DNA from: Phoronis australis
Lineage: Eukaryota > Animalia > Phoronida
DNA length: 64,000 bases
NCBI GenBank assembly: GCA_002633005.1
Contig: NMRA01000277.1
Location: 429,152-493,151 of the forward strand
Direction: 5' to 3'
Part shown: positions 4,810 to 62,467 of the stretch, piece by piece
How the letters are laid out: each line of letters starts with the position of its first letter
Position numbering within the stretch: position 1 is the first letter of the stretch
Position numbers and translations under genes: made by a program
The notes under the pieces: model-generated
The model's database searches: none
Seen by the model: the letters and a program-made list of their open reading frames with translations, nothing else
Told to the model about the DNA's origin: nothing

Positions 4810-6719
4810 CACAGTTGGCAGAATTTACTCAGCGAGTTCACGTGATATCGAGCTGTTTTGCTTAAGACTGTTGCTGCTCATGCATGTACGTGGGCCAACT
4901 TCTTTTGAAGACCTTAGAAAAGTTGGAAATGTTACTTCTGCTTCATTCAAAGAAGCCTGCTTCAGTTATGAAACACCTTTTGACGGACCAAACAGAGTGG
5001 GACAATGGTCTAGCAGAAGCCAGTGAATTTCAAATGCCAGCTCAACTTCGAGTGCTCTTCGCAACAATATGTATATATTGCGAGCCATGTGATCCCATGG
5101 CACTTTGGGAGAGGTACAAACTTCTCATGTCAGAAGACTTCGTTACACGCCCAAACGTCAGTAAGCGGCAAGATTCCTGCAACATGCCGTTGCAGCATAT
5201 TACATCCATCTTGCAAAAAAACGGCATGACTGCTTCCCAGCTGGGACTTTCTGAACCGCAAGAAATTTTGAATGTTAATGATGTATTTGACACAGCTACT
5301 GAACTTCAACATGCAACAACACACTGCTGAATATTGAGCATTGTCTGTTGGTGGACAACATTGTCAAACTGGATCTGCACTCTCGGCCGAATCCAGATGA
5401 GAAAACTGCATACTTCCTTGATGGTCCAGGCGGCAGTGGCAAACAATGGTCTACAATACCCTCATTTCGCATTGCAGAAGCCAAGGAATAAATGTTGTCT
5501 CATGTGCTTGGACTGGGATAGCTGCAACACTATTGAAAGGAGGCAGAACAGTACACAACCTATTCAAGTTGCATGTGCCTATCCTTGATACCAGTTCTTG
5601 CAATGTGTCATCCACGTAGCCTACGTCCCAACATGCAGAGTACCTAAGGTCTGCGCAGCTGTTAATAATAGATGAAGCGTCAACGGTGCCAGACGAGGCT
5701 GCGAGCCATTGACAAAATGATAGCGCACGACATCACTGCCGACAACGCCATCTTTGGTGGTAAAGTAATTTTGTTGGGTGGTGACTTTCGGCAAGTTCTG
5801 CCAGTTGTACCCCGTTCTTCAAGAACTGTGATTATGGAAAACTGCCTGAAAAGCAGCCAATTGTGGAAGCATTTCAAGTTCATGCACTTAACGAAGAACA
5901 TGCGTGCAGAAAAAGATCAGCAAGAGTATGCAACATGGCTTTTGAAGTTGAGCAATAGCGACCTTTGCACATCATGCCCTGAAATATATGCCACTTGACA
6001 GAGTTGACCTTCCCGATCAATGCTAAGTTGTCGGACATGGTGAAGAAGTCTTTAGAAATCTTGGAGATCCAGAGAGCATCATTTTAGCCTCCACAAATGA
6101 TACCACTTTTCAGATAAACAATTAAGTACTGGCAGAGTCACCTAGCTGGAGAGTCAACTGTTTACCTGAGCTCAGAGAGAGCCATCTGCGATGATGAGGA
6201 AGAGGCACACAATTATCCAGCGGAATTTTTAAATTCATTCACTCCTTCTGGCATGCCCCCTCATAGTTTTACAGCTCAAACCTGGTGCTATCATCATGCT
6301 ACTGAGAAATATTAACATTCGGGAAGGTCTCTGCAATGGAACTCGCCTATCTGTATGCCGACTCCACAATAGCACCATAGACGCCAAAGTAATTACTGGA
6401 GCTGGACTGGCCAACGAGTTCTAATACCAAGAATAAAACTGGCACCATCAGACAGTACGTGCTTTGCCCTTCATCCGAAGAACGCATCCAGTTTCGTGTC
6501 CGGTCTCGCATACTCCATCACCATCAATAAGGCTCAAGGTCAAACATTGAATTTAGGCATCTTTTTCCAGCCCCAGTATTTGCTCACTATGGTCACGTGG
6601 CATTCTCTAGAGCAAAGTCCCTAAAGAATGTCACTGTACATATTTGTTGACCATGTGGGGCAAGGAAAGGTGAACGGCAAAATTGTAACCAAAACATTGT
6701 GTACACAGAAGTTTTATAA
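4810..6719 (+). mobile_element. Decayed Helitron Rep/Hel, PIF1-family helicase region (multiple frameshifts and stops)
   Basis: Ordered motifs across frames: LRLLL..HVRGPTSFEDLR, FLDGPGGSGK, WTGIAATLLKGGRT, IIDEAS, FGGKVILLGGDFRQVLPVV, LTKNMRA, YPAEFLNSFTPSGMPPH, IMLLRNI..EGLCNGTRL, ITINKAQGQTL, VAFSR, terminal IVYTEVL-stop; no introns. Confidence 0.93.
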
Positions 6720-7709
6720 TCTTTACAATTTTTTCACAAAATCTGTCCTTAGTACTATAATGTCACAGTGGTGTGTGATATGGTCTCCATAGTCTCATGT
6801 TCTTCATTGGTGAGAATTGCTTGCAGGTCTTGGCCTAATTAACAGTCTTTGGTTTGCACTTTTATGATCACGACTGTTTTAACGTTTTCCAGATGTTCCA
6901 CCGTTAATGAGTGTTTTTATTACTGCGCATGCTCATATGTCGCGTGAGAGTTAGTTGCCGAATTATAGAGTCGATATCGTTAAAGTAAAAGAAGGGCGTC
7001 AGTTGTTATTATTTTGTTATCGTGTTTCATCGTAAATCGTTTTTAAAAATAAGAATTTAGTTGAGCATCATCGGCACAATTAGACTTGTGTAATACCCTG
7101 AATTTTTTGTGTACAAATGCTTCTTAAAACAGATTTTGTATTTGTATTTGTATAAGCTCTCTATATTTTGGTAATGATTACAAAATGGTTTTTTATTAGG
7201 TCAGTCTTGACCCAGTCATCCTTAGTTTGTACAATTATTATAGACTTTTGTAAATACTCTGAAACTGTTTTGTGTGCAGAACAGTATTTTAATACTTACT
7301 TAAGTTTTCAATTCAAGAATATCTGATTATCGTACATTATATTATGACAGGGTCAAAAGTTTTGGAAAAAAGTACTTGTACTGCCTTGGGAAAGCATCCC
7401 GCAGCCGCACACCCTGTCTAAATCTGAAAGAAATTCTGAATCCTTGAAATAAAACGGTCTCTTCAAGAAATTTTCCTTTTTTCTTGCGACGAACACTAAT
7501 GTTCACTTGGAGGTAGCTGTTTCCCGCCGGCATTTTTCACATACACTAGCTTTTACCCGTGCTTTGGCTGTATATAGTTGGTTTTAAAAGCATCCCGTTA
7601 CCTTCACCAATCAGCCATACGGGTCTTGACTCCGTGTGCAGACAACACTGTTGCGCTCCATAAATGACAACTTCTACGCAGAATACAGGGATACCTTTTA
7701 CGCTTCGTA

Positions 7710-7795
7710 GGGCAGAAAAGATGCCCACAAAAATTGTCTTTTCTCTAATAAATGAGCTTACTTAGAATCAGCAAGAATTAGTCATCGCGGAAATT
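7710..7795 (-). ncRNA. Novel Sm-class snRNA-like gene, copy 1
   Basis: Predicted RNA AAUUUCCGCG...AAUUUUUG-UGGGCA-UCUUUUC-UGCCC; PSE-like TTACCTGTATAACGTAATATTT at about 7831-7852 and distal AGATGGCGCTG at 8025-8035; TATA degenerate. Confidence 0.65.
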
Positions 7796-8414
7796 CCACA
7801 CCATGAGTCAACACAGAACTAATGAACTGAAAATATTACGTTATACAGGTAACTATAATTTTCCGTATTTAAAACATTTTAAGACTTTTACTTCCGACAA
7901 ATTTTCGGTAATTTGGTTTACTTATAATAACTGACAATTAGCTGTGTCACATTGGTTGTGTCTAGTTCTACTGCGCGTGAAACCGTTGGTTTTTATGAAC
8001 CCAGTCTGTAGAAACTTTTGCAAACAGCGCCATCTTTTGCCTAATTCACAAACTGGCTATAACAATGTACTGTAGCTTCTTACCAGCACTTGAATGTCTA
8101 CACGTTTCCCTTTTACTAGCGCTTTACTGACGGTCTTTGATTTTTTGTGATTCAGTTCACCACGGGAGCAGTTTAGCATGTTAAATTTTACAAAATTGAA
8201 TGCTATCTGGACTAATCGGTTTGCACCGGCAACAGTTGCACCCGACCAACGTATACTCCCAAGGCACTTTGAGTAGGCCACATCGATCACTAGCCCAAAA
8301 GCCAGGTAAACATATTTGAAGAACTGCCATAATTGCCTCTAATATTGTAATTTTATTTGACTAGGTCCAAATAATCCAAATGCGGTCAAACTGAACAAGC
8401 GATATAGACCCAAT

Positions 8415-8688
8415 GGGGCTATTCGGAGAATTCTCCTCGCGGTGTCGCTGCTGTACTAGTGGTGATTAAATTGCGCATGCGTGGCTGTCTGCATGTAAAC
8501 AACTGGTAAAAGATGGAATTGTTATCAAAATACGTCGTCGCGCTAAGCCTTATTACTGCTAATTTCCTTGGTGCAAGTCTTCGACAGATGGCCACAAATT
8601 CCCAAAAGACCTAAGGTTACTATATTCGTGTGCAATTGTGGTCAACAGGGTCAACTAACTGACAAAAAGTGTGTGGATGCTGAAGCCC
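8415..8688 (+). mobile_element. 5' end of a THAP-bearing DNA transposon (possibly ISL2EU-like), truncated at the N
   Basis: Present after caat in duplication copy 1 but absent from copy 2; decayed THAP-like peptide YC*FPWCKSSTDGHKFPKD at about 8561-8610. Confidence 0.5.
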
Positions 8689-8689
8689 N

Positions 8690-8999
8690 GGTCCGACGTC
8701 GGTAAACAATCGCTTGCAGGGTGGCGGGACGTTGATAAGTGGTCGGAATTGAATTGGCGCGACGTCGGTAAAGGGTCGTATTTCCGCCGTCGGGCCCAGG
8801 TCGTACCGTCGTCGGTTATTAGTCGGCAGTCGGACCAACGTCGGGTCATCGGCGGCCCGACTGCGACGTTCTTACGACGTTGTTACAACGTTCATCCGAT
8901 GGACAAAATCACGTTGGTCCGACGTCAGACACCAACGTTGGCCCGACGTAACGTGAGTCGTCGGACCGACGTTGGACCACCGACAGCATGCTATCTGGG
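8690..8999. mobile_element. GC-rich MITE right arm with CCGACGTCGG-type subterminal repeats
   Basis: Many ccgacgt/acgtcgg repeats ending gctatctggg, inserted at an AT that is unoccupied in duplication copy 1 (6653). Confidence 0.7.
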
Positions 9000-10040
9000 A
9001 TGTGGGGCAAGGAAAGGTGAACGGTAAAACTGCAACCAAAACATTGTGTACAAAGAAGTTTTACAATCTTTACAATTTTTTCACAAAATCTGTCCTTAGT
9101 ACTATAATGTCACAGTGGTGTGTGATATGGTCTCATAGTCTCATGCTCTTCATTGGTGAGAATTTCTTGCAGGTCTTGGCCTAATTAACAGCCTTTGGTT
9201 TGCACTTTTATGATCACGACTGTTTTAACGTTTTGCAGATGTTCCACCGTTAATGAGTGTTTTTACTACTGCGCATGCTCATATGTCGCGTGAGAGTTAG
9301 TTGCCGAATTATAGAGTCGATATCGTTAAAGTAAAAGAAGGGCGTCAGTTGTTATTATTTTGTTATGGCGTGTTTCATCGTAAATCGTTTTTAAAAATAA
9401 GAATTTAGTTGAGCATCATCGGCACAATTAGACTTGTGTAATACCCTGAATTTTTTGTGTACAAATGCTTCTTAAAACAGATTTTGTATTTGTATAAGCT
9501 CTCTATATTTTGGTAATGATTACAAAATGGTTTTTTTATTAGGTCAGTCTTGACCCAGTCATCCGTAGTTTGTACAATTATTCTAGACTTTTTTAAATAC
9601 TCTGAAACTGTTTTGTGTGCAGAACAGTATTTTAATACTTGCTTAAGTTTTCAATTCAAGAATATCTGATTATCGTACATTATATTATGACAGGGTCAAA
9701 AGTTTTGGAAAAAAGTACTTGTACTGCCTTGGGAAAGCATCCCGCAGCCGCACACCCTGTCTAAATTTGAAAGCAATTCTGAATCCTTGAAATAAAACGG
9801 TCTCTTCAAGAAATTTTCCTTTTTTCTTGAGACGAACACTAATGTTCACTTGGAGGTAGCTGTTTCCCGCCGGCATTTTTCACATACACTAGCTTTTACC
9901 CGTGCTTTGGCTGTATATAGTTGGTTTTAAAAGCATCCCGTTACCTTCACCAATCAGCCATACGGGTCTTGACTCCGTGTGCAGACAACACTAAATGGCA
10001 ACTTCTACGCAGAATACAGGGATACCTTTTACGCTTCGCA

Positions 10041-10126
10041 GGGCAGAAAAGTTGCCCACAAAAATTTTCTTTTCTCTAATAAATGAGCTTACTTAGAATC
10101 AGCAAGAATTAGTCATCGCGGAAATT
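10041..10126 (-). ncRNA. Novel Sm-class snRNA-like gene, copy 2 (probable allele of copy 1)
   Basis: Two substitutions relative to copy 1 within the RNA (one in the 3' hairpin loop, one just 5' of the Sm-like site); same promoter spacing (60 and 239 bp). Confidence 0.6.
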
Positions 10127-12351
10127 CCACACCATCAGTCAACACAGAACTAATGAACTGAAAATATTACGTTATACAGGTAACTATAATTTTCCGTATT
10201 TAAAACATTTTAAGACTTTTACTTCCAACAAATTTTCGGTAATTTGGTTTGCTTATAATAAGTGACATCTAGCTGTGGCACATTGGTTGTGTCTAGTTCT
10301 ACTGCGCGTGAAACCTTTGGTTTTTATGAACCCAGTCTGTAGAAACTTTTGCAAACAGCGCCATCTTTTGCCTAATTCACAAACTGGCTATAACAATGTA
10401 CTGTAGCTTCTTACCAGCACTTGAATGTCTACGTTTCCCTTTTACTAGCGCTTTACTGACGGTCTTTGATTTTTTGTGATTCAGTTCACCACGGGAGCAG
10501 TTTAGCATGTTAAATTTTACAAAATTGAATGCTATCTGGACTAATCGGTTTGCACCGGCAACAGTTGCACCCGACCCAACGTATACTCCCAAGGCACTTT
10601 GAGTAGGCCACATCGATCACTAGCCCAAAAACCAGGTAAACACACTTGAAGAACTGCCCTAATTGCCTCTAATATTGTAATTTTATTTGACTAGGTCCAA
10701 ATAATCCAAATGCGGTCAAACTGAACAAGCGATATAGACCCAATTCACGCGGCGGACATTAAAATCCAAAGTGAGGCTCACTGCGATAAACAAAGCGGAA
10801 GTTGACATTGCATGAGTTAAATAGCCGGTCTTTCGATTCCAACCTGGATATTGAATTTCAATAATGTGTCGACAATTAACCACAGAGACGTAGAAATTAC
10901 ATCAGAGAACAAAAAGTTAAGGCGTCAAAGAGGTCTGACGAAAGGGTTTAATTTTTTCGGAAAACTATGTTCGAAACATGAAAAGTAAATATAACCAAAT
11001 TGCGACGATCGTAGTGTTACGGATTATGCTGATTGCAGGGTTACGTTTTTCTTGTAAATTGTTGATCAAAATACTTTCTACGCGAACCAGGTCATCTGCT
11101 CGTATTGTTGACGAGTTGAAGACATATTCTACAGTGGTGGCTGTCATGTGCAATTAATTTGATGATCAAGAATGTTAACATCAAGCATAGCCTGATCCTA
11201 TGCACTCACTGGGACTAACAGTTGACTTGCCATTGATCTGAAAGAATAATTGATGTTATTAAATATATTTTTATGAAAATAAAAAACCAGGCTCGTAATT
11301 GAAAAGAAAAATTATTTGACCATCAATTCTGCTTTCTTGGCTTATAATTCTTACGTCTATTTCATGTGTTAGGTTTCAAATATCAATCTGGACCAAGTTG
11401 AATTTTAAAATTAAAACACCTAATTTGTTCGTCCAAAGCATAACCTCGTTTAAGAACTCAATTTCAGTTAACTGGACAAATCAATCATAGTTATCATGTT
11501 TCTCCAGGAGCCTCTTTCATCCGAGGGGAAAGGTGCCAGTGCCTACTGAGAGGCGATTTTTTCGCCGGCAAGTGAGGGCGGGAACAATCACCTCCCGATC
11601 ACCATCAATAGCACCCCTGCCCTGTTGCAAGCTCTTTTATTAGGCTCTGTCTCAATTTAAAGTAGCCTTTTATGCTCTGTGGTTACAGGTGATGTGAACT
11701 CAGAGAGATTTTTCACTGGGGGAATTTTTATGCCATTCATGCTCGATGGGGGGATTTCGCGTGATATTTCAATACTTTTGAGAGGGGAATAGGGCCGATA
11801 TTGGGCCCCAAATTCGAGGGATTGAGAGCCTTGTCCTTTTTGGAAAGAAAAATTATAATGTTTCAACCCGTAATCATGAAAACACAGCCTGGCTGTATTC
11901 TCCGGTCGTTACTATTATGCTTGGCAACCGAGATGCGACAAAATATTATCTCGAAAACATTTACAAATTTTACACCGGCGGACATATTTTGCTTCGTCGC
12001 GGCGTATGGAAACGACCCAACGCTTCCGAATCTCAATGTCTTTAGGGATTGTAAAGCAGACAGTTGAGTATCCGTATTTTTTCTAGCCGTTCGCGGAGCA
12101 ACGCGAACTGAAATACACAACTATCGGATAAGCTAACAGAGCTATCGTAGTGAACCTCATTTTGGAACGCGTCTCCTGTCGGCGTGAATTGGGCCTATAG
12201 ACTGCCGCCTGATACTAGTAACACTTAATACACTACACGCGTAATATTGTAAAACTTTTACTGCCGCCAATTCCTATGTCGTAATGAGAATGTTTTCACT
12301 GTTAAACCTAAAACAAATACATGTACTAGTAGCAGAAAGATTGTATCTGCT

Positions 12352-12447
12352 GAGGGTTAGTGGTTTATAGCGGGGTTAGGTTTAGAGTTAGGGAAAGATT
12401 TAGGGTCAGGGTTTGGGTTAGGGTTAGTGTTAGGGCAACAGTTAGGC
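12352..12447 (+). repeat. Degenerate (TTAGGG)n-like interstitial repeat; paralogous tract at about 16904-16983
   Basis: gggttag/ttaggg units preceded in both places by the same tactag..agcaga..gattgta..tctg.tgagggtt flank. Confidence 0.75.
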
Positions 12448-13535
12448 AAATGCGACTTCAGGCTGACACATGTGTTTTAGTGGGAAAATTGAAAATTTAT
12501 CGCTTAGTGGTACAGTACCTGTGTACAACTTTGTGACCAAATTAGCATCGGCATGCACTTGCCCATTGCTTATGACAAACAGTCAAAAATGAAGAACCTT
12601 CTTGTTTTTGCCACAAGACAAACACTGCATTGGAATTTTAGGATGACGCTGAGAAAATTTAGTGTTGAATTTCTCATCAAAAGTAAACCTCGAAACAAAT
12701 GCGCATCCCTACCACCGCTGTACAACTGTCATCAAGTAACGCACTTTACCGCTGTAGTTCAGCTTCTTGAAAAATAGAGTCTTGATTTTGAGGGTTAACT
12801 GGAAGAATAAACATGTTTCCAGTCTACGCTAAAAGGGGTAAATCCCAATCAGGGTCCTCATTCGGTGCCGGCGGCCATTTTGGTGAAAATTGAAGGATGC
12901 CATACATGTATAACTGCTGGTGGGTTATTTTTAAGCACCACCATTCCTGGTTTGTAATCTACTGTAAAATATTTTTCACAAGAACCACTGAATAAAATGT
13001 TATGGCCTGATACATCACAGTTGTATAAAAGGGAACGTACAATACAACTTGTGGTCACAGCCCGCTTCTATCATGAAAAAACTCATAAGGTAGCTGTCAA
13101 TTAAATAACTTCTTGATCAAATTGATGAAGTATCTCAACTAAAGTAAGAAAAAAAATAATATTACTGTTTTTTCTAGATGATGATGCATTACATATCTCA
13201 AACACATTGTAATGAGCCCTTTTTCTCTTGCAATACGATTCTTACAAAAACAGAAAGTCAAGTACTGTAAATATATTTTCAAAAACTGTATTGGCGATTT
13301 TGTTACTGCAATTCCTGAAACTATGCAAGAGCTAGTGCATAAGTTGGGTACGCGAATCACCAGCACACAACTATATCCTCTTAAAAGAGACAGAGTCGAC
13401 GCAATATTTTTAAAAAACAAATATTACAATGATACTACACCTTTTCGGATGCAACATTTTAATACTCATTTCTTCACCGGGGACTGCGTCTATTTTGCCA
13501 AATAAAACTTTTGCATTTAAATCTACGCATGAAAT

Positions 13536-13616
13536 GGCAGAAAAATTGCCCCAGAAATTTTCATAATCGTTTGATTTAGTAATTACCCAAAATGCTATAA
13601 AGGAATCGCGGAAATT
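13536..13616 (-). ncRNA. Novel Sm-class snRNA-like gene, copy 3
   Basis: AAUUUCCGCG...AAUC-AAAC-GAUU stem, AAUUUCUGG Sm-like site, GGCA-AUUUUUC-UGCC hairpin; PSE-like TCACCTGTGTAGTGTAATATTT; distal element degenerate with an adjacent TACATGTA insertion. Confidence 0.65.
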
Positions 13617-14601
13617 GCATTACGTAGAACCGACACAGTATTTATTGTTCCAAATATTACACTACACAGGTGAAGCTTAAATCTTGCTGTCGGTAACATT
13701 TTAAAACTTTCATTGCAACCAATTCTTATGTCGTAAGAATTTGCCCATTCCTAGCAAGACCTCGGTTTGGAGAATTGGCTATGTGTACCGATCAATGCGC
13801 GTGGAAGTGTTTGTTCTTTTAAACCCAGTCCGTGGTCATTCAGTGTTGCGAACAATGCTATACATGTAATTTACCGCGTAGACTGGCTGAACGATAAATA
13901 GCTTTCACCAACACTTTGCTCGTAGCAAAACATGCGAATGGTTAATTCAAGCGTCGCTTTTACTAGCGCCATTTTGCTGGCAGTTGTTGGTTTTTACGAC
14001 TCTGTTAACTATAAGGGCAATTTAGCACGGATTTTGAAATTTTACAAAATTGAATATTATTAGGATTAATCAGTGTGCTCCGACAACAGTTGCAACCATA
14101 CGTTGTACAGTATGTTCTCACTGGTCGAAAGCTTAAATCAAACTTAAGATCACTTTCTTGGAACGGACTTATGACAAATTGAAGTTTTATCTTAAAATTG
14201 AATTAAAATAAAGTCTTCTCTTAACTAAGTCAGTCTTCTTGGAACGGGCCTCAGAATTAAAAAATTCAGTAGCCAAATAGGGGAATAAACGTGGGTATGG
14301 GTGACCCACTAGGCGGTCTCAATTGGCCAATTTGGAGGACGTTGCAGTCATGTTGTTCTTTCTTTCTCGTTTCTCATTTTGTTGTGGTTTTCGGCCCGAG
14401 TTGAGCAATCGCAGTGTATCAACGAAATTATTTTGCGCCAATTACGCGGGGTGTGGTTCTAAATTACTCCTACAAATTGGTCGCAGAATTAGTTTATTTA
14501 TCTCCCGTTACCTTAGTCAATCGCTGGTATACTACACGGGTTGGCTCTATTCATGATAACCCTCACGCATAGGAGGAGAACACCTTTTCATTGGCTTTGA
14601 A

Positions 14602-14668
14602 GGGCAGCTTTGCCCGATAAAAATTTTTTTAATCTTCAGATTAAGCAAGTACATAGATCGCGGAAATT
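14602..14668 (-). ncRNA. Novel Sm-class snRNA-like gene, copy 4
   Basis: AAUUUCCGCG, UUAAUC-UGAA-GAUUAA stem, AAUUUUUA, GGGCA-AAGC-UGCCC; PSE-like TTGCCTGTGTAACGTAATTTTT; distal AGGTGGCGCTG at 14898-14908. Confidence 0.65.
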
Positions 14669-15487
14669 AAAGATCTAGAGCCGACACAATATTAATAAAC
14701 TAAAAAAATTACGTTACACAGGCAACTTTATTTCTTCGTGATTAAAACATTTCAAACTTAAAACTCCATCAAGTCTTCCACCGTTTGAGTTGAACAATAT
14801 GTTTTGACATCAAAATATGGCAAATTATTTGTGTCCAGTTCTACTGCACGTGAAATCGTTTGCTTTTACTAACCCAATATGTAGTAACCTTTACAAACAG
14901 CGCCACCTTTTATCTTGTTCACAAACTGGCTATATTGATTTTCCAGAACTTGAACGGTCACAAGTGTCCCTTTTACTGTTTGCATTGCTGGGGTTTTCTG
15001 TAATTCAATTAACCACGGGGGCAGTTAAACATTTGAAATTTTACAAAAGTGAATGTGAGTTGGTTTAATTGGTGTACTCCGACAACAGTTTGCACCAATT
15101 GTATACTCCTGCGAAATTAGGCAGGCCAGATCGACCAGCCCAGCCAGATAAATTCTTGAAGAGCTAACGCCACGTTAAATAGTCTGCCTAATTATTAATT
15201 TTTATTTCGAATATTACAATTTCATTTGACTGGGTCCAAAATGTCCATTAATGACCCCGTACTGAACAGGCGATAAGGACCACCAACTGTGTATTTTGAA
15301 TACATAAGGAAATCGCTGAACAAGTCTCCATCGATTGCAATGCGACGCCACTTTATACTCGCCTCAGTCATGCTTGCAAGCACGAGACATTTATCGTTAT
15401 TTAGAACAGGACGGTTCTTTGTCATGAGCATTCGTTACACTACGGCTGGTTTGTCGTAGGTCTTTTGCACTTCATTCTACTCTTTAA

Positions 15488-15570
15488 GGGCAGCAAATGT
15501 GCCCCAAAAAATTTCTTAATCAGTTTGATTAAGTAATTACCCATAATGCTGTAGAAGATACGCGGAAATT
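15488..15570 (-). ncRNA. Novel Sm-class snRNA-like gene, copy 5
   Basis: AAUUUCCGCG, perfect CUUAAUCA-AAC-UGAUUAAG stem, AAUUUUUUGG Sm site, GGGCA..UGCCC hairpin; TATATAAA at -30, PSE-like TTACCTGTATAG, distal AGAGGGCGCTG. Confidence 0.75.
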
Positions 15571-15813
15571 GTTTGACGAAGAACGCGGACAATTTATATA
15601 ATATTTAATTGTAATACTATACAGGTAATCTTTACTTATTTGTGTTGACAATAATTTAAATCTTATATTGTAGCCAGATTTCATGTTTTAAGATTTTCTT
15701 AGTATTTACTACACTCTTACTTAAGGGGAATTAACTGTGCTTTATTTAATGCGCGTAAAGTTGTGTGTTCTTTGAATCCCGTCCGTGGTCATTGTTACAA
15801 ACAGCGCCCTCTT
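15571..15813 (-). promoter_or_regulatory. snRNA-type promoter of copy 5 (TATA-like, PSE-like, distal element)
   Basis: Minus-strand TATATAAA 15600-15593, TTACCTG 15628-15622, AGAGGGCGCTG 15812-15802. Confidence 0.65.
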
Positions 15814-16426
15814 TTACCGCGTACACAAACTGGCTGAAACGATAAGCTTTCACCATCACTCAGTCGCTCGTAGCAAAACATGTGAACGGTTACAAACGTC
15901 ATTTTTACCAGCGTTTTGCTGACAATCTTCGATTTTTGCAACTCAATTAAAATTTAATTACCATTTGAAATTTTACGAAATTGAATGTTATTTGAATTAA
16001 TCAGTGCGCTCCGACAACAGTTGCACCTATTGTATGCTCTCAGGGCTTTGAGTAGACGTGCCTGAGTGATCGACCAGGCCTGTAGCCAGGTAATAATATT
16101 TGAAGAGATAACACGACGTTAATCTGACTAATTTTTAAAATCGTTTTTGATATTGACAGGGTCCAAAACGTTCAAATGACGTCATACCAAAAGGTGATAT
16201 GGATGGCTGATTGTGTATCTGTTGAATGCGCAAGGTACAGTGTAATCACTGAACTTCAGCACAAGTCGCATCAAACACGTTCATGATTGAACTGAACAGA
16301 CACGATACTTAAAACTTATAACACTACATGTATACACACGTAATTGTAAAACTTTTAATGCCACCAATTCCAATGTCGCATTGAGAAGTTTCCCATTTAG
16401 CATGGGCGCACGCGGGGGTGAGCTCG

Positions 16427-16579
16427 CAGGGGCGGATCCAGGATTTTGAGTTAGGGGGGCCAGGTTGAGTATTATCCAGAATTTTGCCCGTCAGACATTC
16501 GCACCCCAAAGCTGCCAAATGGAATTTGGGAGAATTTTAGGGGGACCATGACCCCTTGCCCCCTCTAAATCCGCCACTG
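16427..16579. mobile_element. Short hAT-like MITE (CAGGGGCGGAT...ATCCGCCACTG); relatives near 20025-20190, 23020-23165, 24923-26268 and 50150-50298
   Basis: Terminal inverted repeats and shared internal sequence among dispersed copies. Confidence 0.65.
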
Positions 16580-17816
16580 GCACAGGGGGGCTCGAAGGAG
16601 CCTCCCCGAATTTGACGAATTGGGCAAACGGCCGGGTCCGTCTCAGTGAAACAAAAACTGAGTCCGGTTAAACGAGACAAAAGTCCACAAAATCCAGGGG
16701 ACTGAAATCGGTGCGGATGCACAATTCGTGAGCCTGAACCTAGTGGCTAGTTAGGTTTTTTTTTTAATCCTCGTTGATTTCTTTCAGTAAAAGCTCCGCA
16801 TACCGAACGATTCGATCCCCCCTATACTGTAGTCTTAGACTGGGTGCGCGCATGTTTACTAGCGACACAGTACTAGCAGAAGCCGATTGTACATGTATCT
16901 GTTGAGGGTTGGTGGGTTATACATTTCCAAATCTTCTACACGTAGGGTTGCAGGGTAGGGTTAGAGTTGGGGTAAGAGTTAGCCTACCCGACTAGAACGG
17001 TTCTTTGTCTTAGCACAAATACTGGAAAGCTTGGTGTCGCATTAGGGTTTATATGAAAGTGACCGACAAATACACAAATGTGCGGTCTGAAAATACTGAA
17101 ATTCAGATACTACCACATGGGCGACGCACCATAGGAGGCTGGGGGGGCTACAGCCCTCCCCACTTTTTCAGTGCTGCGGGCGCCGCCCATGGTCTACTGG
17201 CGGTGCACCCGCGGGCCACAGGGGGGCTCGGAGGGACATTCGTCCCACTTCTTCCACAGTGCGCCGCCCATTTACGAAGCCTGCATGAATTAGGGGTCAC
17301 GGACATTTTTGTATATTATACTTTCAAGGGCATGCAGTCTTGTACATCCCCAAGTTATTATTTTCAGTTTCCTCTTGCGAGCAGCCAGTATAACTTTTCA
17401 CAATGAAACGTACCTCCACTGAATCAGTTCCCGTGTTACCATTGGCCGAGTTTTGGTGTTGCCGTTTTTGCTTACATTGGTGATGAACCTATCACGTGTT
17501 ATCAAAATTATTCGGGAAAGGTTCTCTTTGAAGCACAATCTGCAGTAGAAAATGTAGTCAAAGACGGCTCATTCCGCATCAAGAAATTCTCATTTTGCTC
17601 CCCAGAAGACCACCCTAGTATCTCCAAATTCACCAAACTTTGTGGTGTCATACTTTACAAAAATTCTCTCATCCCTAATGTGATTCATAAGACTGAACAT
17701 ACATGTAGCTCTGATACTAACTCCCAACTTGCCAGTTGTTGACTACTGTGGTCGTTGTAACCGTGGACTAACACTTAACTTACGGAGGCGCACAACATTC
17801 CTAGAACTTTAAATTG

Positions 17817-17902
17817 AGGCACGTAATTCCGTGCCCTATAAAAATTCATAAAGTTCAAAAAGTTATTAACTCTGCAAGGCGATAGCCTTTGCCGCGGAAA
17901 TT
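17817..17902 (-). ncRNA. Novel Sm-class snRNA-like gene, copy 6
   Basis: AAUUUCCGCG, GCAAAGGC-UAUC-GCCUUGC and AGAGUU..AACUUU stems, AAUUUUUA, GGGCACG-GAAUUA-CGUGCCU; TATAAA at -25, ACACCTGCACGG PSE-like, TAGGTGGCGCTG distal element at 18133-18144. Confidence 0.72.
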
Positions 17903-18847
17903 AAAGCTCACGCGAGAGACGTTTATACATAATAAATTGTTTGTTATTCCGTGCAGGTGTTATACCATTCTACTCTATCTGAGATTGAAACACTAGAATT
18001 TGAGAAATTTGTGACACAGTCAGATACAAAATTGAACACCACGTTTCGAGATTTAATGGATTGACAGTGCACGGTTTTACTTAGTCACAAAATTGGTTAA
18101 CTTTTACTCGACCTTGGCCATATTATTGTTCACAGCGCCACCTAGCATGAATCACAGCAACACTGAAGCCCGATCGAGTTTCTGATTCGGTGAATGCGTT
18201 CAAACAAAGCATTCAAATGTGATTGTTGCTCTTTAGCAGTCTAATTACTATATTTTGCAACTTTTTGTTTCTCATTATTGCAGTAAAAATCGAACATATT
18301 TTGAACTCCTACTTGAAAGTCTCTCACTACTCGGATGGTGCTACATTTGTAGCCTGAACGTAGGCAGTGTGTCTGCAAGATGTTGGTTACTTTGAAAGCA
18401 TCTATCGTGTTGAGAACTTTGTATTTCTTCTTTGTTGCTCTCTGGCATCTACCTATACGTACGTCGAATTAGAGGTCAGGATATTGCGACTTTTAACGGC
18501 ATTATATAGTCGAAGAAGGCAGAGCAAGAATGGAATGTTAACGTATGTACGTGGTGCTCCTGCCCTCGGATTCCGAAATCCGACGCAAAGATTGCTCCTC
18601 AACTTTGACAGCAGAGTAAACGTTACTACGTCAACTTTCGGAACACCTGTTAATAATTTAGCTTACTCAAGAGTGTACTTTTTAATGACACTAGTTTTGT
18701 GTCAGACTTTAGGTGACATTTTTACTCAAATAGGCGCGGCAAACCTGTAAGTCAACCTCGTACCAAGACAGGGAGAAGGGGTGACTCGTGAACATGCACC
18801 GTTAATTATTGACGTGCGTGACATGCACTGCACTGAATTAAAAACCC

Positions 18848-18925
18848 GGCAGCAAAACTGCCTCCCAAAAATATCGAAAAAAAGACTTAATAATACTTAA
18901 TAATTATTGCCTAAACGCGGAAATT
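18848..18925 (-). ncRNA. Novel Sm-class snRNA-like gene, copy 7
   Basis: AAUUUCCGCG...AUAUUUUUGG, GGCAG-UUUUG-CUGCC; TATATATT at -30, TTACCTGCATGGTGTAATATT PSE-like, AGGTGTCGCTG distal element. Confidence 0.72.
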
Positions 18926-20462
18926 GTGAATGTAATCACCTGGCGTTAATATATAAAGCTTTTAATATTACACCATGCAGGTAAATTCATTCTTTCGTCT
19001 TTCTAGGATTAAAAAAAATAAAAATGGTGAACTTCATAAAGCTATTAGTACAAACATTAAAGCGGTGTTTTATACAAGCGTAGAATTGACGGTGTCTTGT
19101 GGTAATATGTGTGAAAGTCTATATTGTTTACCAAGCATCTAGTTATCGTTTGCAAGCAGCGACACCTATAGTCAGCAAAGAAAATGAGTGGCAAGCGACG
19201 AGCTTTTTCCGAATTGTAATACGAGAAAGGGGAATGATCTAAAATGAACAAAACGGAACTATAGATCAGTCTATCAACCTACACCATATACATGAATACA
19301 TAGGCAATCGTCTGAAAAGAAAGCTCACAATGATTATACAACTTTGTCGGCATATTATTTGTTGTGTAGCCTAGGAACACATGCATGACATCGTGTTTGT
19401 GTTTAATTTTGAGTCAACATGAGGTGTTTGCAAATGTAAAAGTTCTCAGTAAGGCCCTTCGCACTTCCCAACTTCTTGCGACGAGAGGAGGCCATCTCAA
19501 TAAAAAGTCAAATTGGATGTTTTCAAAACTCTTCGAAATGGTCAAAATTCTGATCAAATTCACTGTTTGATGTAGATCATCACCAAAAGAATGAATTTCT
19601 ATATGCCCAAAACGCTGGGAAATGCTTACTAGACAACACGGTCCGCCTACAAGGGTAACGTGCATTTTGAGAACCAGGGTTTTCCAATACATGTACAGTG
19701 TACATGTAACAGGAGTCAAACTGGTTCGTAAAATGCGGAATGCCTTTGAGAGACCCAACTTCTATCATGCAAATAAATTCATAGAGGTACACTGTAGCAC
19801 TTAATTACTTGACTGAATTGAAGAAGTATGACACCAAGAAAATTTATTAGCGCACGGTGATCAAGTTGTTCCAGAGGGCATACGTGTCAACCAATACGGG
19901 AACTATACGCAATGTTAAACGGTTGTCCGTCACCAGTTGGTCAAAGTAGTTGATCGTTAATTATTTCAGTAACACGTACTGGAGGACTACACACAAGTGT
20001 TCTGTGAAATTGGGGAAATGAATTCAGTAGCGGATTTAGAGGAAGGCAATAGTACCATAACCCACGCCCCCCTAGAATTCTCACAGATTCTATTTGGCAG
20101 TTCGGGGGTGCGAATATCTGAGGCCGGACAAAATCCTGGCTAAAACTTTTCGCTGGCCATCCTAACGCAAAATTCCGGATCCGCCCTGGAATTCAACTGC
20201 CCTCGTGGTGTTCTCAACAGTATTATGACGGTTCTCTTTTGTTCTCGTTCTCTGGGGCCATGTAGGGAGGACCATATACGAAAACCGCGATTTCACTTCA
20301 AAGTTATTCCGCATAAGATAATATTGAATATCAGGTCACCACTTAGATTTCCATGAAAACATATCAGGCTCGGCGGTACCCAATCGATGGATCTGCGGGG
20401 AACTCAAAAATTAATGTCCTCTGTAAACGAAAACCTAACATTACCTGTATGGCAGAGAAGCG

Positions 20463-20525
20463 GGCAGTCAAACTGCCTTCAAAAAATGAACTGAAATGTA
20501 ATATTACGCATTTAACGCGGAAATT
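20463..20525 (-). ncRNA. Novel Sm-class snRNA-like gene, copy 8
   Basis: AAUUUCCGCG, AAAUG..CAUUU stem, AUUUUUUGA Sm site, GGCAG-UUUGA-CUGCC hairpin. Confidence 0.72.
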
Positions 20526-20767
20526 ACTCTTATGTGTGGATGTCGTTTATATATCAGCTAAAAATATTATTCTGTACAGGTGATTAAAGACAAAGGTTAT
20601 TATAACATTTTGAAACTCTTAAAAAGATTTTTTGTTAGGTTTTGGGGACTAAAATTGCAGCTGTTAGGATCCACGTGAATAGGATTGACTGTATCTGGTT
20701 TTACTACGCGTGAAAGTCTTAATTTTTTAAGCGGTGTTAGGTCGTCGTTTGCAAGCAGCGCCACCTA
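20526..20767 (-). promoter_or_regulatory. snRNA-type promoter of copy 8
   Basis: Minus-strand TATATAAA 20553-20546 (-28), TCACCTGTACAGAATAATATTT from 20583 (-58), TTTCACGCG near 20710, AGGTGGCGCTGCTTGCAAAC 20766-20747. Confidence 0.7.
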
Positions 20768-21199
20768 TCAATTGAGCAGAAAAGTGCGCAGCAAGCGACG
20801 AGCCGTTTTGTAATTGACTTATCGCAAGCTCCGCCCCCTTGCGTGATGTCGACCAACAAACAATAAGTTTTCTCCGGCAACGTGTTGTTTGTTGGGTAAA
20901 ATGGCGGTTTGGAAACGAAGCTGTGTCAATAATGCTGCGTTCTAAATGGTCAGTTTAGCGTCACTCAAAATCCTGGCGATAGGTCAATTGCTATCGAGAC
21001 AGATTCAACTTACAACCATTGAAAAGTCGATGTGGCTGTCATTAGAATTCAGTTTTCTGTTTATGCAAAGCACACTGATATACGCACACCGCACGACTCT
21101 CGACGTTGTCGATTTATGTTAGATATATTTGATTTATTCCTGCACCAGTTGCAGGTGCTCAGACCGTAGTTACAAACTTCATGTACGGTACCTCGCACA

Positions 21200-33373: not shown

Positions 33374-34621
33374 AGGCGAAATCAACCTTTTTTCATGTCA
33401 TTTTTAGCAATAATAGGATTCGTTGATTATCCCAGAAATATTTTTCACTTATTTACAGATTTTCGTAAATTAATTAATTCTTTGTCGTCTACTCCGGAAG
33501 TGACGTTTTGGGAGGCAAGAATTTCGCGCCAATTTCTTTTCATACAGTCTGATTGTGAGAGCAGTCGAGTCAGTCATTGTTCTACCTCGGTTGTGATAAG
33601 TTCGAAGGTCGTTTGCTTTTGTTTACGAATCAGTCAACATGACACGCTGTTGCTGCCTACCGAGATGTACTCTTCATCGTTTCAAGTACAGAGGAAGAAC
33701 TGTCCCACTTGCCCGAGTGTCCCGCGACACACTCCCGATGATGACTTGAGTACCCAAACTGCTTACATCCCGCCGTGCGACTCCCTCGTCACACATGTGG
33801 CACCTTCTAAATAGCTCCAATACAAGTCCACAATAAACCTATCAAACTTAGGTTCACCGATCTGTTCACTGGGTGTCAAACTTGGCTTGTATTCACTCCC
33901 ACTACTCAACATTGCTGCAGGGCTGCTTACAGGCTCTGTCCTAGAGACAACAGCACACGGGGAATCACAGCTAGTTCCTGGAATTGCAGGCAATGGGGGT
34001 ACGTTCGGAGGCATGGGTGACAGTAGATAAAGTGCCTCCAGTCACTGTTTATAGTGGCTACAGCTCGCGAGGCTTCTCGCTTCAAAAACGCACTTCTCGG
34101 GGTTGGCGATGGGGCACTGCCGGGAATCAACAGCGACGGTATGGAACCCTTCTTCAGGCGTTGTTTCGCAGGGACCTTCATCAATTCAGCGTACATACAT
34201 GTATCTCTGTCGTAATCTGACGGCTGAAAATGCTTGACACTGCTTTGTACGGTGCATGAACGGGTAGCGCTGCGTTCTTCACACGAACGAGCTAGCCAAG
34301 TACGGCCAAGCGTGTCATCCTTCGGAAAGCGATGCAAGGTACCCAAAGCGTGTGTGAGACGATAATGAGTACTGTACATCCTGGTACGCAGCAACAGCGT
34401 GGCATGTTGACTGACTCGTAAACAAAAGCAAACGACGACCGAACTTATAACATCCGAGGTAGAACAATGACTGACTTGACAGCTCTCACCGTCTGACTGT
34501 ATGAAAAAAATTGGCGCGAAATTCTTGTCTCCCAAAACGTCACTTCCGGAGTGGAGGACGAGAAATTAATTAAATTATGAAAAGCTGTAATTAAATGAAA
34601 AATATGTCTGGGATAATCAAC
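33374..34621 (-). mobile_element. Non-autonomous Kolobok-like element with about 250-bp TIRs and a decayed THAP domain
   Basis: 33422-33670 is the reverse complement of 34374-34621; left end TTAA|AG; minus strand LHRFPKD...W...KHF.PSDY...RLKKGSIPSL is THAP-like. Confidence 0.75.
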
Positions 34622-42720: not shown

Positions 42721-43575
42721 TTACCTGATGTCCCTTGATTGGTCATGAAAATAGCATGTATGAGTGAGCCAAGACCCGGGAAAGTCAAGAACAACAATTC
42801 CCAGACGTCCATGTGAGCTCCTTTGTTTCTTTGCGTACCGATGAACATGGCCATTGATCCTATGAGCAACCGCATTTGGATAAGCGCCACTACTGACACC
42901 GCTGCAGAAAGTGACGAACCATTGGCCCCGGGATGCTCCTCTAGCTCTATTGAGATGGTCCGTGATACCACTGAGTTTGTTTTCGATATCACCAGGCAGG
43001 ATAGTGTTAACAGTGTAGTCATCCTTCACTTCCAAATTTTGCCAATGTATGCCCGCACCTCTTCCCCACCGATTTATGATTACAATCTTCCCCCTGACTT
43101 GACCTAAAGTAGGAGTGTGAGCGGATAACCAAAACCGATGGGAGCCATGTCGCGACACGTAACCTTTAAAGGTGCTCTCAAAACTCTCGGTGTTACCTTC
43201 GGAATCATGCTCTGGTTTTACGCTCATCAAAATAGTTTCTGTTGGATTTTTCTCCAAAAAGTTTATCGCCGACGTCAGAACATCATAAAAACTTGCATGC
43301 TGGTACTTCACGCCGTGATGGATTTCAAAACGGTCATAAAAGTGGCGACAACGGATGTCAACAAAACGGATGCCTGCCACAAACTGCAGGAACAGACTCA
43401 TTGTTTGGCAAGCTATTAGACTCCCTCCATGGAAAGACATAGACTGGTGTGTCCCTGGAATGGACATGTCCGCTAGACTTCTGGAGTCGGGAATTCCACT
43501 CATCCAGTTGGACCAGTCTTCATCTATTCGTTCGCCCGTAAAGTAAGACTCCGGACCGCTGAGTTCGGCTCCCAT
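42721..43575 (-). CDS. Bacterial-type phosphatidylinositol-specific phospholipase C (PI-PLC X domain), single coding exon, 284 aa
   Basis: ATG at 43575 (MGAELS); WMSGIPD, SIPGTH, CQ, GIRFVDIRCR, IHHG, FL..NPTETILM, PTLGQVRGKIV and GIVVLDFPG are hallmarks of Bacillus-like PI-PLC; 4-bp insertion near the C terminus. Confidence 0.9.
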   Translation of the reverse strand: MGAELSGPESYFTGERIDEDWSNWMSGIPDSRSLADMSIPGTHQSMSFHGGSLIACQTMSLFLQFVAGIRFVDIRCRHFYDRFEIHHGVKYQHASFYDVLTSAINFLEKNPTETILMSVKPEHDSEGNTESFESTFKGYVSRHGSHRFWLSAHTPTLGQVRGKIVIINRWGRGAGIHWQNLEVKDDYTVNTILPGDIENKLSGITDHLNRARGASRGQWFVTFCSGVSSGAYPNAVAHRINGHVHRYAKKQRSSHGRLGIVVLDFPGSWLTHTCYFHDQSRDIR

Positions 43576-46500
43576 GTTCTTTCTCAGGAAGAAACAAAGT
43601 CGCTTGTGTTGCAAATTCTGTGCTGTCTCCTCAATTTAAAGTTGGCCTCGATAGAGTTTCAGCACCAGTTTCGAATCGTGCGGAAAACTGTGTCTAACGA
43701 TTTATAACCACAGATTAAAGTAGGCCTTTACCCTTCGTAAAATAGAAGTGATGTTCTACCGAGAGTTGAGTTTAAACCTTATGACCTTAGGTGTTATTTT
43801 TTCAGAAGTAAGTACATGTAGGAGGTAATAAGGGGGAGGGGTGAATCATTACACTCTTTCATAGTGCTACGAAAGGTAGTATGGCGACCAAATTTGATTT
43901 GAGCAGTTGCAATTTATTAAAACAAGCAGTGATCGAAGTAAAGAAAATCAAGGGAACCCAGAGGCTTAAGCTCAAACAAGCTAGTGCATAAAGGTGTGTG
44001 CAAGTGGTGGCGATGTGATTGGTATACTTCCAACCACGGCATGCGCATTGATGCCCACACACGGAACTCGTCTGCTGTCGTTCATCAGGCTTCCACAGGG
44101 CCACTTTTCACTGTAGGTGGCTCTGTGTCAGATGACAGATTTTTTTCGCATAAACATTAGCCACATTAGCGCTTCTCTGATGTCCAGCGAGGAAATGAAA
44201 CTTAGGTACAGCGTGCTTAAAGAATGAGCGAATTTTCACGAACACCAATAACGCAACGCCTCGATTGCCAAATTTATAAGACCATAATGGAGGAGGACTG
44301 ATGTTGTGATTAGTTGTCCCAATGCTGTGCTGTACAGGTGTGGACATGTATCGACCAATAAATACTCGAATTTTAGATCAGCTAATTATCATTTCGTAAA
44401 ATAGTGTTTACGGTTGTTCTACATGTAATTTGATCAATGTTTTTGATGTTTTAATAAGCATTTTAAGATACCACCGAAACTGCTGTCAAATCGTTGTTTG
44501 TGAATTAGTGGATCGGCTTTTGTTATCTTATCTCCATGTACTTGAACGTGTACCTGTAGGTCTCTTTCTTTATGCACGGGGGTCTATCTACACTTATCTC
44601 GATGACCTGTTTGAGAGCACAAACTCACACCCACTGATTGACTCATATCGCACACTTTGATGAATATTTGAGAGTACTGGTATGGCAAACGGGCAAATTT
44701 CCCAATGAGTCATCAAATATACATACATGTACCGCCGTACGGGAATTCCACTTTCAAGGTGACTAGACGTATCGCGCAATAGCAAAATCCCAGCAAACGG
44801 GATTTCCCTGTCCGTGGCGACAGACCCAGTTTCAGACAACAGTGTGCGCTCCCTGTGCGGTTGAAGACACGAATTGCGCAACCTAAGTCGGAACCCCCTA
44901 GCAGTGTCATAATCGTCGCAAACACGTCACTTTTGAAGCTTTTTCGGTTTTCAGCGAATTCACAAAGTAATTTGCCACTATAAAATGAACACGCTCCTTA
45001 GAAAAACTTACATGTAGCTACATGTAGCCATTTCTTAATGTCCAAAAGGTACAGCAGTTATTCCAGTCTGTTGTCAGAAGAGGTAAGTTATAGTCAGCAC
45101 TTTTAAGATTTGGTTCTAGCACGCTACGTTTTTGTCGTCTGCATACACTTTTACTTCTTGCAATCTGTTATGATTACGATTATCAATTAACCCTGAAACG
45201 TCTGTTAACTATCGGTGGTAATTGTCAATATTCGTAAAATTATTATTCAAAAATGCAATATTCTCACATCGTACTTTTTATTGCTGCAGTATACCCAAAA
45301 TAATTCTTTTACGGTCAGAGCTGCTGGTATGCTGGTTCTTAGGGATGATTCTCACAAACTTTTAAACCCTTATTTTGTAGTGTATGGCTGAAGAAAAGGT
45401 TCCATTGTTTGTGTATCTTGCAACGGAAAATATCGACCCTAATCCTCAAATAAAAAGCAAATTAGCACCATTTTGCATAAATGACAGGAAAAAAACCAAC
45501 GGCACTAGCAATGGGCTTTGACCATACGCCGGTAGAACTCTTGTCTGCTGCAGAACACAACTGGTGCTCGTTTAAGTCTTAACTCGGGAGCTCCTTGCGA
45601 CGAAACTGGTAGTGAGCCTGGTCAACTGTTCCCGTGACAGTGTAAGCATTCAGCGTGGTCAGAGTGACGCTATTGAAGCTACATGTACGTGGGACCAATT
45701 TTTGCCAACGTAGAAACATCGCATCTCAGAAATGGCTAAATCAGTGGAGTCACATGAAACTTCCCGATACCATGCGATATACACTGTTCTACAAAACTTT
45801 TCTAGGAATACGGTTTCTAAAATATCTCCCTTTTGCATGAGACCTATCAAAAATTATATAATGATGTGATTTTCCGAGAAAGGCGCAGTTGCATAGAACA
45901 ACAACGAAACGATTATTTAGAAAACTGTGACAACGCTTTTAGATTTGATGTATATCATACGACATTTGGTAATGTGTTTTATCATGTCGCTTTGCTATAA
46001 AAATGTGCCTAAAATTATAAGTACTTTTTCTTAGAGAGTGATTTACATGTAAAAAGTGGTAGATACATGTAGCATGGACGGCGCAGCACTAAAATAAGTG
46101 GGGGCTACATGTGTAGCACCTCAGCCCCCGTGGATAGATATAAAGACAAAGGCAGATTTCTGCGAATTTTTCTACTTTCATAAAATAGAATTTTTTTTTT
46201 CAATTCTATGGATTTTGGATATTTTTATAAATGTACAACCTCGTCAATAGCGTTCTACACAATCTTGATGTAGAGATTAAATTCTCATGCGATACCATTC
46301 AATGCTGAGTCTTAGTAGTACGCTCAGATGAAACACTTAAAGTAAGGTACACTCTCGGAGAGAAAAAGTAATTTAACAAAAAATATTCGAAACCACAGGC
46401 TCCGCAAAAACAGCCCAGCAGCCTGCCAAATGCCAACAAAGCGTAAAACAGTATTTTCAGAATATTTTTAAAATGTTAACGATGGCCTTGATATGAGCGA

Positions 46501-62020: not shown

Positions 62021-62467
62021 CAGGGCTTGGAACTACCAATGACAAAAAACGCGGAAACTTTTACGGCCCAAAACATGCGCGCTACCCAGCCTTGAAATAG
62101 TCGATGTGAACCTTTCGCCGACAAAAATCGGTAGGACTTAAAAAAAAACGTTACCCCCACACATTTTTGGCTGCAAAGCCGTAGTATTTGTCACCGTGGT
62201 TTACAATCACACGAGACGCCATTGAAAATCCCACCACGCTATCCCAGATGCCCCGGCAATGTTGGCAATTTACGTTCCTCCGAAACATAAAGAGCAACTT
62301 CTGCTTTTCGAGGTGAACGTCGTCGGCAACGCCGCGGTAAGAAATGAATTTGCCGCGGAAATTTTATATCAAATCCGATATTTTTACGCGGAAATATAAT
62401 AAAATGCGCGGACAGAACATTTGAAAAAAGCAGAAATCTGCTTTTCCGCGGAAAATTCCAAGCCCTG
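62021..62467. mobile_element. hAT-like non-autonomous element with 6-bp TSD in MIGA intron
   Basis: TIR cagggcttggaa...ttccaagccctg; gtaaat at 62015-62020 and 62468-62473; subterminal CGCGGAAA repeats. Confidence 0.85.

Follow-up and report, generated by a model that had tools for sequence, protein, structure and literature searches.

Eight related units on the minus strand of the 64-kb stretch of DNA analysed here (the window) carry the same 10-nt sequence at their predicted transcription start, which raises the question of whether this decamer is a guide sequence at the 5′ tip of a small RNA, the beginning of a spliced leader (SL), or a DNA element. The units (copies 1–8) are paralogues that resemble snRNA genes and share an invariant tip, outside known families. 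We put at about even odds (roughly 0.5) the reading that they encode a lineage-specific family of Sm-class snRNAs, in which the 5′ decamer would serve as a base-pairing guide.

Eight snRNA-like gene units with an invariant 5′ tip

The window contains nine exact matches to AATTTCCGCG, all on the minus strand, against 0.12 expected under a second-order model, and 13 matches at no more than one mismatch (shuffle mean 3.17, maximum 7). Eight of the nine exact decamers fall in homologous minus-strand units that span 7711–20525, with the 5′ A of the decamer at 7795, 10126, 13616, 14668, 15570, 17902, 18925, and 20525; the range 13536–15570 considered in the earlier note holds copies 3–5 only. The parts follow one order throughout: a distal 11-mer (7/8 copies) and a PSE-like element lie upstream, AAUUUCCGCG occupies +1, and a middle that varies between copies leads to a loose Sm-like U-run and then a GGCA/UGCC hairpin. 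The ninth exact decamer (62354–62363, minus strand) is without any other part of the unit and was ruled out as a gene; it sits inside a MITE-like element (62021–62467) that has terminal inverted repeats of 12 bp and is flanked by a direct repeat of 6 bp.

The predicted RNAs of the eight copies, measured to the end of the hairpin core, are 63–85 nt long, and all lie on the minus strand. Copy 1 (85 nt, 7711–7795) has its decamer at 7786–7795, U-run at 7727–7735, and hairpin at 7711–7725, and copy 2 (10042–10126) is a recent duplicate of it (unit 6653–8414 vs. 9000–10744, 96.7% identity). Copy 3 (81 nt, 13536–13616; decamer 13607–13616, hairpin 13536–13550) has a variant U-run at 13553–13559, and copy 4 (66 nt, 14603–14668) has its decamer at 14659–14668, U-run at 14617–14625, and hairpin at 14603–14614. 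In copy 5 (82 nt, 15489–15570; decamer 15561–15570) the U-run at 15504–15513 is the sole strict RAU3-6GR Sm site of the family, next to the hairpin at 15489–15503. The remaining RNAs are those of copy 6 (85 nt, 17818–17902), in which the hairpin is two pairs longer, copy 7 (78 nt, 18848–18925), and copy 8 (20463–20525), the shortest at 63 nt.

Copy 2, being 97% identical to copy 1, was omitted from the comparison; among the seven independent copies that remain, mean pairwise identity is 1.00 in the decamer, 0.38 in +11 to +38, and 0.41 in −32 to −1. Invariance begins exactly at the predicted +1, which is preceded by a pyrimidine in 6/8 copies, and all ten decamer columns are invariant, compared with 6/28 and 3/28 columns in the promoter DNA elements of the same genes. 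The two claims from which the earlier note set out, that the decamer is identical in all eight copies and that conservation drops immediately after it, are thus borne out (8/8 exact; identity 1.00 to 0.38). Its further observation that the decamer appears unpaired holds for nt 1–5 (predicted unpaired probability 0.65–0.99) and fails for nt 6–10, for which the value is 0.22–0.50 in 7/8 copies and 0.95 in copy 6, the copy in which the decamer is predicted to be wholly unpaired. The weak predicted pairing partner of nt 6–10 differs between copies.

Rfam gave no match in the window at gathering score, the level at which alone copies 1 and 2 were scanned; with the threshold relaxed to E up to 10 in 13300–16000, 17700–20800, and 15880–16200, a single weak match overlapped a gene body (Bacilli-1, E 4.5). 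No tRNA was identified in the window. A metagenome scan (8/64 parts) yielded 117 loci, none of which matched the promoter, distal, or far-upstream profile; CCTG was in place in four of them, and one locus (L037) was flagged for its hairpin and failed the full pattern. Among viral contigs, none of 54 pattern matches had a U-run plus hairpin. In the literature, the string AATTTCCGCG was not tied to such an RNA by title or abstract start among the matches listed, and its RNA spelling returned no match; topic searches found no description of the family in a coverage that excludes subscription journals, and SL catalogues in supplements could bear on its novelty. As to the surroundings, the best named PI-PLC relatives (36–48%) are spread across vertebrates, hemichordates, molluscs, and echinoderms; these relatives, together with a neighboring spliced NTR-domain gene, for which an exon search returned no matches, identify the host as an animal.

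Promoter-like elements and predicted RNA bodies

Upstream of every copy (8/8) is an element near −57 with a CCTG core starting at −54 to −56, which is assigned as PSE-like by its position. These elements are at 7832–7852 (copy 1, core at −54), 10163–10183 (copy 2), 13653–13673 (copy 3), 14705–14725 (copy 4), 15608–15628 (copy 5), 17940–17960 (copy 6, the most diverged), 18964–18984 (copy 7), and 20563–20583 (copy 8), all on the minus strand. The distal 11-mer, which we take to be unlike the octamer or an SPH site, is present at −240 to −242 in 7/8 copies (8025–8035 at −240 in copy 1, 10356–10366, 14898–14908, 15802–15812, 18133–18143, 19157–19167, and 20756–20766 in copies 2 and 4–8, respectively) and is degenerate in copy 3; its pattern has eight matches in the window, seven of them in these units. 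There is also a weaker conserved word near −188 (7/8 copies) and an A/T-rich patch near −30, with TATAWA at −25 to −30 in 4/8 copies. Purine-rich stretches downstream, which are candidates for a 3′ box, are poorly conserved. In published descriptions of animal snRNA genes, a PSE near −55 helps to set +1, the DSE lies near −220, and the Sm site (RAU3-6GR) has stem-loops on either side (PMC2582628, PMC1761439); the positions of the PSE-like and distal elements are close to these textbook values (PMC2582628).

The family can be recovered with the decamer left aside. The eight highest scores of a promoter matrix (20–31) are the eight units, with the next site at 10.6, and in leave-one-out runs the held-out copy ranked within the family in 6/7 cases, copy 6 being found only within the top 31 positions. 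A pattern of U-run plus hairpin, with the decamer left out, occurs at exactly these eight places on both strands of the 64 kb. Because the promoter matrix and the U-run-plus-hairpin pattern each pick the same eight places, the family is no artefact of searching with the decamer. A covariance model, which was built from these copies, gave eight matches at 50–80 bits and the next at 18.9. The spacer between the promoter elements is ~50% identical across copies; the motifs and the distances between them have thus outlasted extensive divergence, and the genes are therefore probably active. DNA depth in the bins of copies 3–8 (31–53) is similar to that of unique background, and the units are therefore neither a collapsed array nor a high-copy transposon.

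In the RNA body, an A followed by U3-6 is present in 8/8 copies, beginning at +39 to +62 and ending 2–4 nt before a GGCA-loop-TGCC hairpin; it takes the form AT4-6G in 5/8 copies and the strict form RAU3-6GR in copy 5 (1/8). The 3′ stem is predicted in every copy with a paired probability of 0.95–1.00. Four pairs of the hairpin core never vary and no pair is altered on both sides (covariation 0.026, a value that was as high in 471/500 shuffles); the core could therefore be a palindrome in the DNA, and the extra inner pairs of copies 6–8 are the only structural hints. Folding of the middle region is barely above that of shuffles (combined z −1.7; controls +1.1), stems on the 5′ side are not conserved, and the folds differ from copy to copy, with a middle identity of 0.38. 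The distance from the tip to the U-run differs by up to 23 nt among copies.

From this organization we infer transcription by Pol II from the first A, Sm binding, and a guide function. SNAPc, bound to the PSE-like element, would direct Pol II to initiate at the decamer's first A; an Sm ring would assemble on the U-run beside the hairpin of the 63–85-nt RNA; and the middle region would act as a spacer that is free to drift. The 5′ tip would then pair with one fixed RNA target, as do the 5′ ends of U1 and U7. The target may be 18S rRNA, which is the least certain step and, on present evidence, a doubtful one.

Readings of the decamer and known RNA families

The units may instead be real snRNA-type genes in which the decamer is not a guide and acts at the start either in the DNA, as an initiator or a binding site for a transcription factor, or in the RNA, as a cap-proximal protein-binding signal, which we consider somewhat unlikely and nevertheless a serious alternative. 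The decamer is at a fixed distance from the PSE-like element, the GGCA/TGCC core is likewise invariant and free of covariation, and the 8-mer core of the decamer occurs 13 times in the window against 1.3 expected, eight times in the genes and five times in the one MITE-like element. Repeated words in DNA transposons usually bind protein, and a factor site or initiator at +1 is therefore a live alternative; the plus-strand reading of the decamer may resemble ETS/Rel-type sites. However, the decamer tolerates no change at all, unlike the other DNA elements of these promoters, in which only 6/28 and 3/28 columns are invariant, and the edge of conservation is sharp and lies exactly at the predicted +1. 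A promoter with a PSE plus TATA raises the further possibility of Pol III genes, in which RNAs of 25–63 nt would end at the first T-run and the hairpin would be downstream DNA. TATAWA at −25 to −30 in 4/8 copies and the looseness of the Sm sites are compatible with this, given that a TATA box selects Pol III in vertebrates (PMC1761439), but copies 1–4 are without TATAWA, the first T4 run has no common position (+25 to +63), and copies 6 and 7 retain a second U-run by the hairpin, which Pol III would not reach because of an earlier T5/T7 run. We judge Pol III transcription of these units to be decidedly improbable.

A diversified family of SL RNAs, the 5′ part of which would be trans-spliced onto mRNAs, is matched by the multiple copies, the size (63–85 nt), the Sm-like site, and the 3′ hairpin; the SL-A RNA of Hydra, for instance, is 80 nt long (PMC7986045). 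SLIDR is described as expecting a GT followed by an AT4-6G site 20–60 nt downstream (PMC7986045), an arrangement found in copy 5 (G|GTA at +31 and AT6G 28 nt further), the donor of which is shared by copy 3 (G|GTA at +31); G|GTA plus a canonical Sm site 20–60 nt downstream is present in copy 5 only. SL exons, by contrast, are reported to end at the G of a conserved GGTA and to be conserved in length (PMC3795323), whereas here G|GTA occurs in 2/8 copies (3 and 5), no donor is conserved at a common leader length, and conservation sits at the 5′ end and not at the donor end. The GT positions are scattered from +10 to +40: +35 (copies 1 and 2), +31 (3 and 5), +30 (7), +33 (6), +17 only (4), and +10, +19, and +35 (8). 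For copies 1–3, 5, and 7, these positions agree with the earlier note, which had described GU sites 30–35 nt in, none of them AG|GU, at a position not kept in copies 4 and 8. We searched three stranded RNA-seq runs under the same species label (35,106,444 records, 18–19% of each run) at a read likeness of 90% for copies 3–8 and 85% for copy 1, to which reads of copy 2 (97% alike) would map. None of the 35.1 million reads fell in the bins that hold the 5′ ends of copies 1 (bin 7586–7846) and 3–8, whereas exon bins of the neighboring NTR gene, as a positive control, had a depth of 29–187, with a GT..AG joint in 37, 43, and 93 reads. The mapping placed repeat pieces of ~32 nt, and the RNA individuals differ from the window at several bases in the control exons; the test is near its limit for the 29–34-nt leaders proposed earlier. 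The result argues against leaders of at least ~30 nt in these samples, is blind to shorter ones, and could miss polymorphic ones. The libraries look mRNA-type, and zero reads are therefore uninformative on the expression of non-polyadenylated RNAs. The preference of that note for a guide over an SL is upheld by the donor count (2/8) and the zero reads, the guide function itself being conjectural, and we regard an SL family as improbable. Equally, the order of 5′ recognition sequence, Sm site, and hairpin is U7-like, and U7 is said to evolve fast and to occur in clusters in sea urchin, frog, and zebrafish (PMC5054213), which would allow the units to be diverged U7 genes that act in the 3′ processing of histone mRNAs. 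Of the motifs by which U7 is defined, RUUUNUCYNG and UCUUU (PMC5054213), the former, the U7 Sm consensus, is present in 0/8 copies and the latter in 1/8 within the first 45 nt. No U7 match was found on copies 3–8 at E up to 10, the tip-to-U-run spacing varies by 23 nt, unlike that of U7, and a U7 identity thus appears very improbable. No histone domain was detected among the 111 open frames scanned.

Returning to the reading as Sm-class snRNAs with a guide at the tip, the closest likenesses are to non-spliceosomal RNAs. U7 snRNA (RF00066) is similarly a very short Pol II RNA with a 5′ antisense region, an Sm site, and a terminal hairpin, clustered in some animals. Drosophila snRNA:LU (Like-U) is a lineage-restricted non-spliceosomal Sm-class snRNA with a PSE promoter, an Sm site, a 3′ stem-loop, and a nearly invariant single-stranded stretch that has been proposed to base-pair with another RNA (PMC4053861). 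As described there, LU is single-copy, intronic, and 116 nt long, has complementarity to U6 in an invariant stretch within the RNA, and was shown to be TMG-capped and Sm-bound (PMC4053861); the window family, which is known from DNA alone and likened to LU by description only, has eight clustered paralogues of 63–85 nt in which the invariant stretch forms the 5′ tip. The HSURs 1–7 of Herpesvirus saimiri also form a set of Sm-class RNAs with snRNA promoters, and base-pair with miRNAs and mRNAs (PMC4378190), but they are viral, and a shared invariant 5′ decamer is not reported for them in the consulted sections of that paper. Nematode SmY RNAs are multi-copy, diverged, short Sm RNAs, the mechanism of which is described as unclear; they are nematode-specific and have a conserved first stem-loop needed for protein binding (PMC11229312), which the window family does not have. 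Since the same source reports data against pairing of SmY with SL RNAs (PMC11229312), the SmY-style model entertained earlier loses ground on both counts. Taken together, the family would appear to work most like LU, the HSURs, or U7, and is by these comparisons a member of none.

18S rRNA as a candidate target

We take the decamer to resemble a universal SSU primer, and its complement was sought in 47 eukaryotic rDNA loci, six of them confirmed as SSU by Rfam; these sequences are not the host's own 18S. The complement of the decamer is found at 9/10 positions in two conserved SSU rRNA sites, 433–442 and 575–584 of RF01960, and at no more than one mismatch both sites are present in 4/6 SSU genes and at least one in 6/6. 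The helix-18 site (575–584) has one mismatch in 45/47 loci, which were chosen by a primer that covers that site, and site 433–442 has one mismatch in 34/39 readable loci; a perfect complement at 433–442 was found in 0/39 sequences. The mismatched base at 433–442 is variable: C, T, or A, and in a single locus, which has other differences, G. Pairing of decamer base 5 is confined to 433–442 and that of base 6 to 575–584, so that a two-site model would explain the invariance of both. The predicted duplexes have energies of −7.1 and −9.0 kcal/mol, compared with −13.1 for a perfect one, with a central mismatch at both sites, and pairing past nt 10–12 is inconsistent.

Among random 10-mers, 5.6% have at least one such site in SSU rRNA (14–16% in whole rDNA) and 0.2% have at least two (1.6–2.1% in whole rDNA), with 0.4% doing so in both of two loci. 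Under an untuned null, 104 of the remaining 5,327 10-mers in the gene regions pass too, most of these 104 being A/T-rich, whereas a tuned criterion is passed by 8 of 1,048,576 10-mers; we prefer the untuned figures because the tuned thresholds were chosen after the result was known. A control in the sense orientation gave 0 sites. The rRNA match is post hoc, and several target classes were considered. 18S rRNA is the best candidate target found, a lead that we hold to be unlikely to prove correct; it was not among the target classes named in the earlier note.

U3, U8, and U13 have snRNA-type promoters and 5′ regions that pair with pre-rRNA. Unlike these and the C/D guides, the window family has a U-run and hairpin and no C/D boxes. 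Assignment as a C/D box snoRNA was accordingly rejected, with a C box in 0/8 copies and, at +10 to +14, where a D/D′ box would follow the guide, CTGA likewise in none. The yeast 2′-O-methylations listed in PMC5199042 include Cm414, Am420, Am436, Am541, Gm562, and Um578, and with an offset of 2 all six of these positions agree with the Rfam consensus, so that Am436 and Um578 come to face decamer base 5 at the two sites. These two residues are guided by snR87 and snR77, respectively (PMC5199042), C/D guides that thus target the two sites that the decamer nearly complements. It is conceivable, if rather unlikely, that the decamer is a compromise: Sm-class snRNAs with a 5′ tip that complements two look-alike conserved 18S sites, at both of which it covers a normally 2′-O-methylated residue, would lack C/D boxes and yet work on pre-rRNA, either by chaperoning its folding or by competing with methylation guides. 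Work of this kind on rRNA is known from snoRNPs.

The retention of promoters and of a perfect 10-nt tip, while the remainder drifted to ~40% identity, suggests that one recognition event has been under strong selection, and with one oligonucleotide directed at the decamer all members could be captured or blocked. Non-spliceosomal Sm-class RNAs are rare (U7, SL, SmY, LU, and the viral HSURs), and each of them opened new biology. Even if the decamer is only an initiator, the units would still constitute an unannotated snRNA family that is missed by poly(A) RNA-seq and by Rfam. If the target is 18S rRNA, the family would represent an Sm snRNP doing snoRNP-type work, which would link both systems and provide a route to ribosome heterogeneity.

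Sequences upstream of the snRNA-like copies

The distal 11-mer, a conserved word about 240 nt upstream of seven of the eight minus-strand snRNA-like copies (8025-8035, 10356-10366, 14898-14908, 15802-15812, 18133-18143, 19157-19167, and 20756-20766), appears to be more like the right half of a CTCF site, and in copies 1 and 2 also like a YY1 site, than like an octamer/SPH enhancer. Copies 1-5 have an upstream block in common (15960-16110, minus strand; homologues at 8180-8330, 10510-10660, 14030-14100, and 15030-15170), which is in part 79-90% alike (repeat family D10). This block is somewhat reminiscent of a decayed U1, but cmscan returned no U1 match at E ≤10 across 13300-16000 and 15880-16200.

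Approximately 500 nt upstream of copy 4, a minus-strand stretch (15117-15172) gave a weak Rfam match to U7 (19.4 bits, E 0.42); it conforms to the U7 Sm consensus RUUUNUCYNG, which is followed by a hairpin, and no proximal sequence element (PSE) of the cluster's type was identified upstream of it. Homologues upstream of copies 1, 2, and 5 also fold into a hairpin but do not contain the U7 Sm consensus. The stretch may be a chance match or a decayed snRNA gene. Two short dispersed segments (12219-12295 and 16319-16402) that lack the decamer, the invariant 5' word of the copies, are 77-84% alike to the DNA immediately upstream of the PSE-like element of copy 3; they may be promoter copies that have decayed, or else a small repeat.

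Protein-coding genes and frames

An expressed and spliced gene for an NTR/C345C-domain protein is encoded on the plus strand (1426-1579 and 2372 to ~3300; the preceding exon ends near 131), an exon of which gave no named relative in the search. A 304-codon PI-PLC X-domain open frame (42724-43635, minus strand) has closest relatives at 57%, and there is a second, weak PI-PLC fragment at 49098-49382 (plus strand). The THAP-domain open frame (33930-34565, minus strand) is probably transposon-derived.

Mobile elements and the decamer

Copy 1 is directly adjoined by a broken, Helitron-like PIF1-helicase remnant (4866-6760, plus strand), the end of which is included in the duplicated unit 6653-8414/9000-10744 from which copy 2 arose. 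A MITE-like element (62021-62467), which has terminal inverted repeats of 12 bp and is flanked by a 6-bp direct repeat, contains five copies of the decamer's 8-mer core, among them the ninth exact decamer; outside the eight snRNA-like copies, it is the only place in the window where the core is found.
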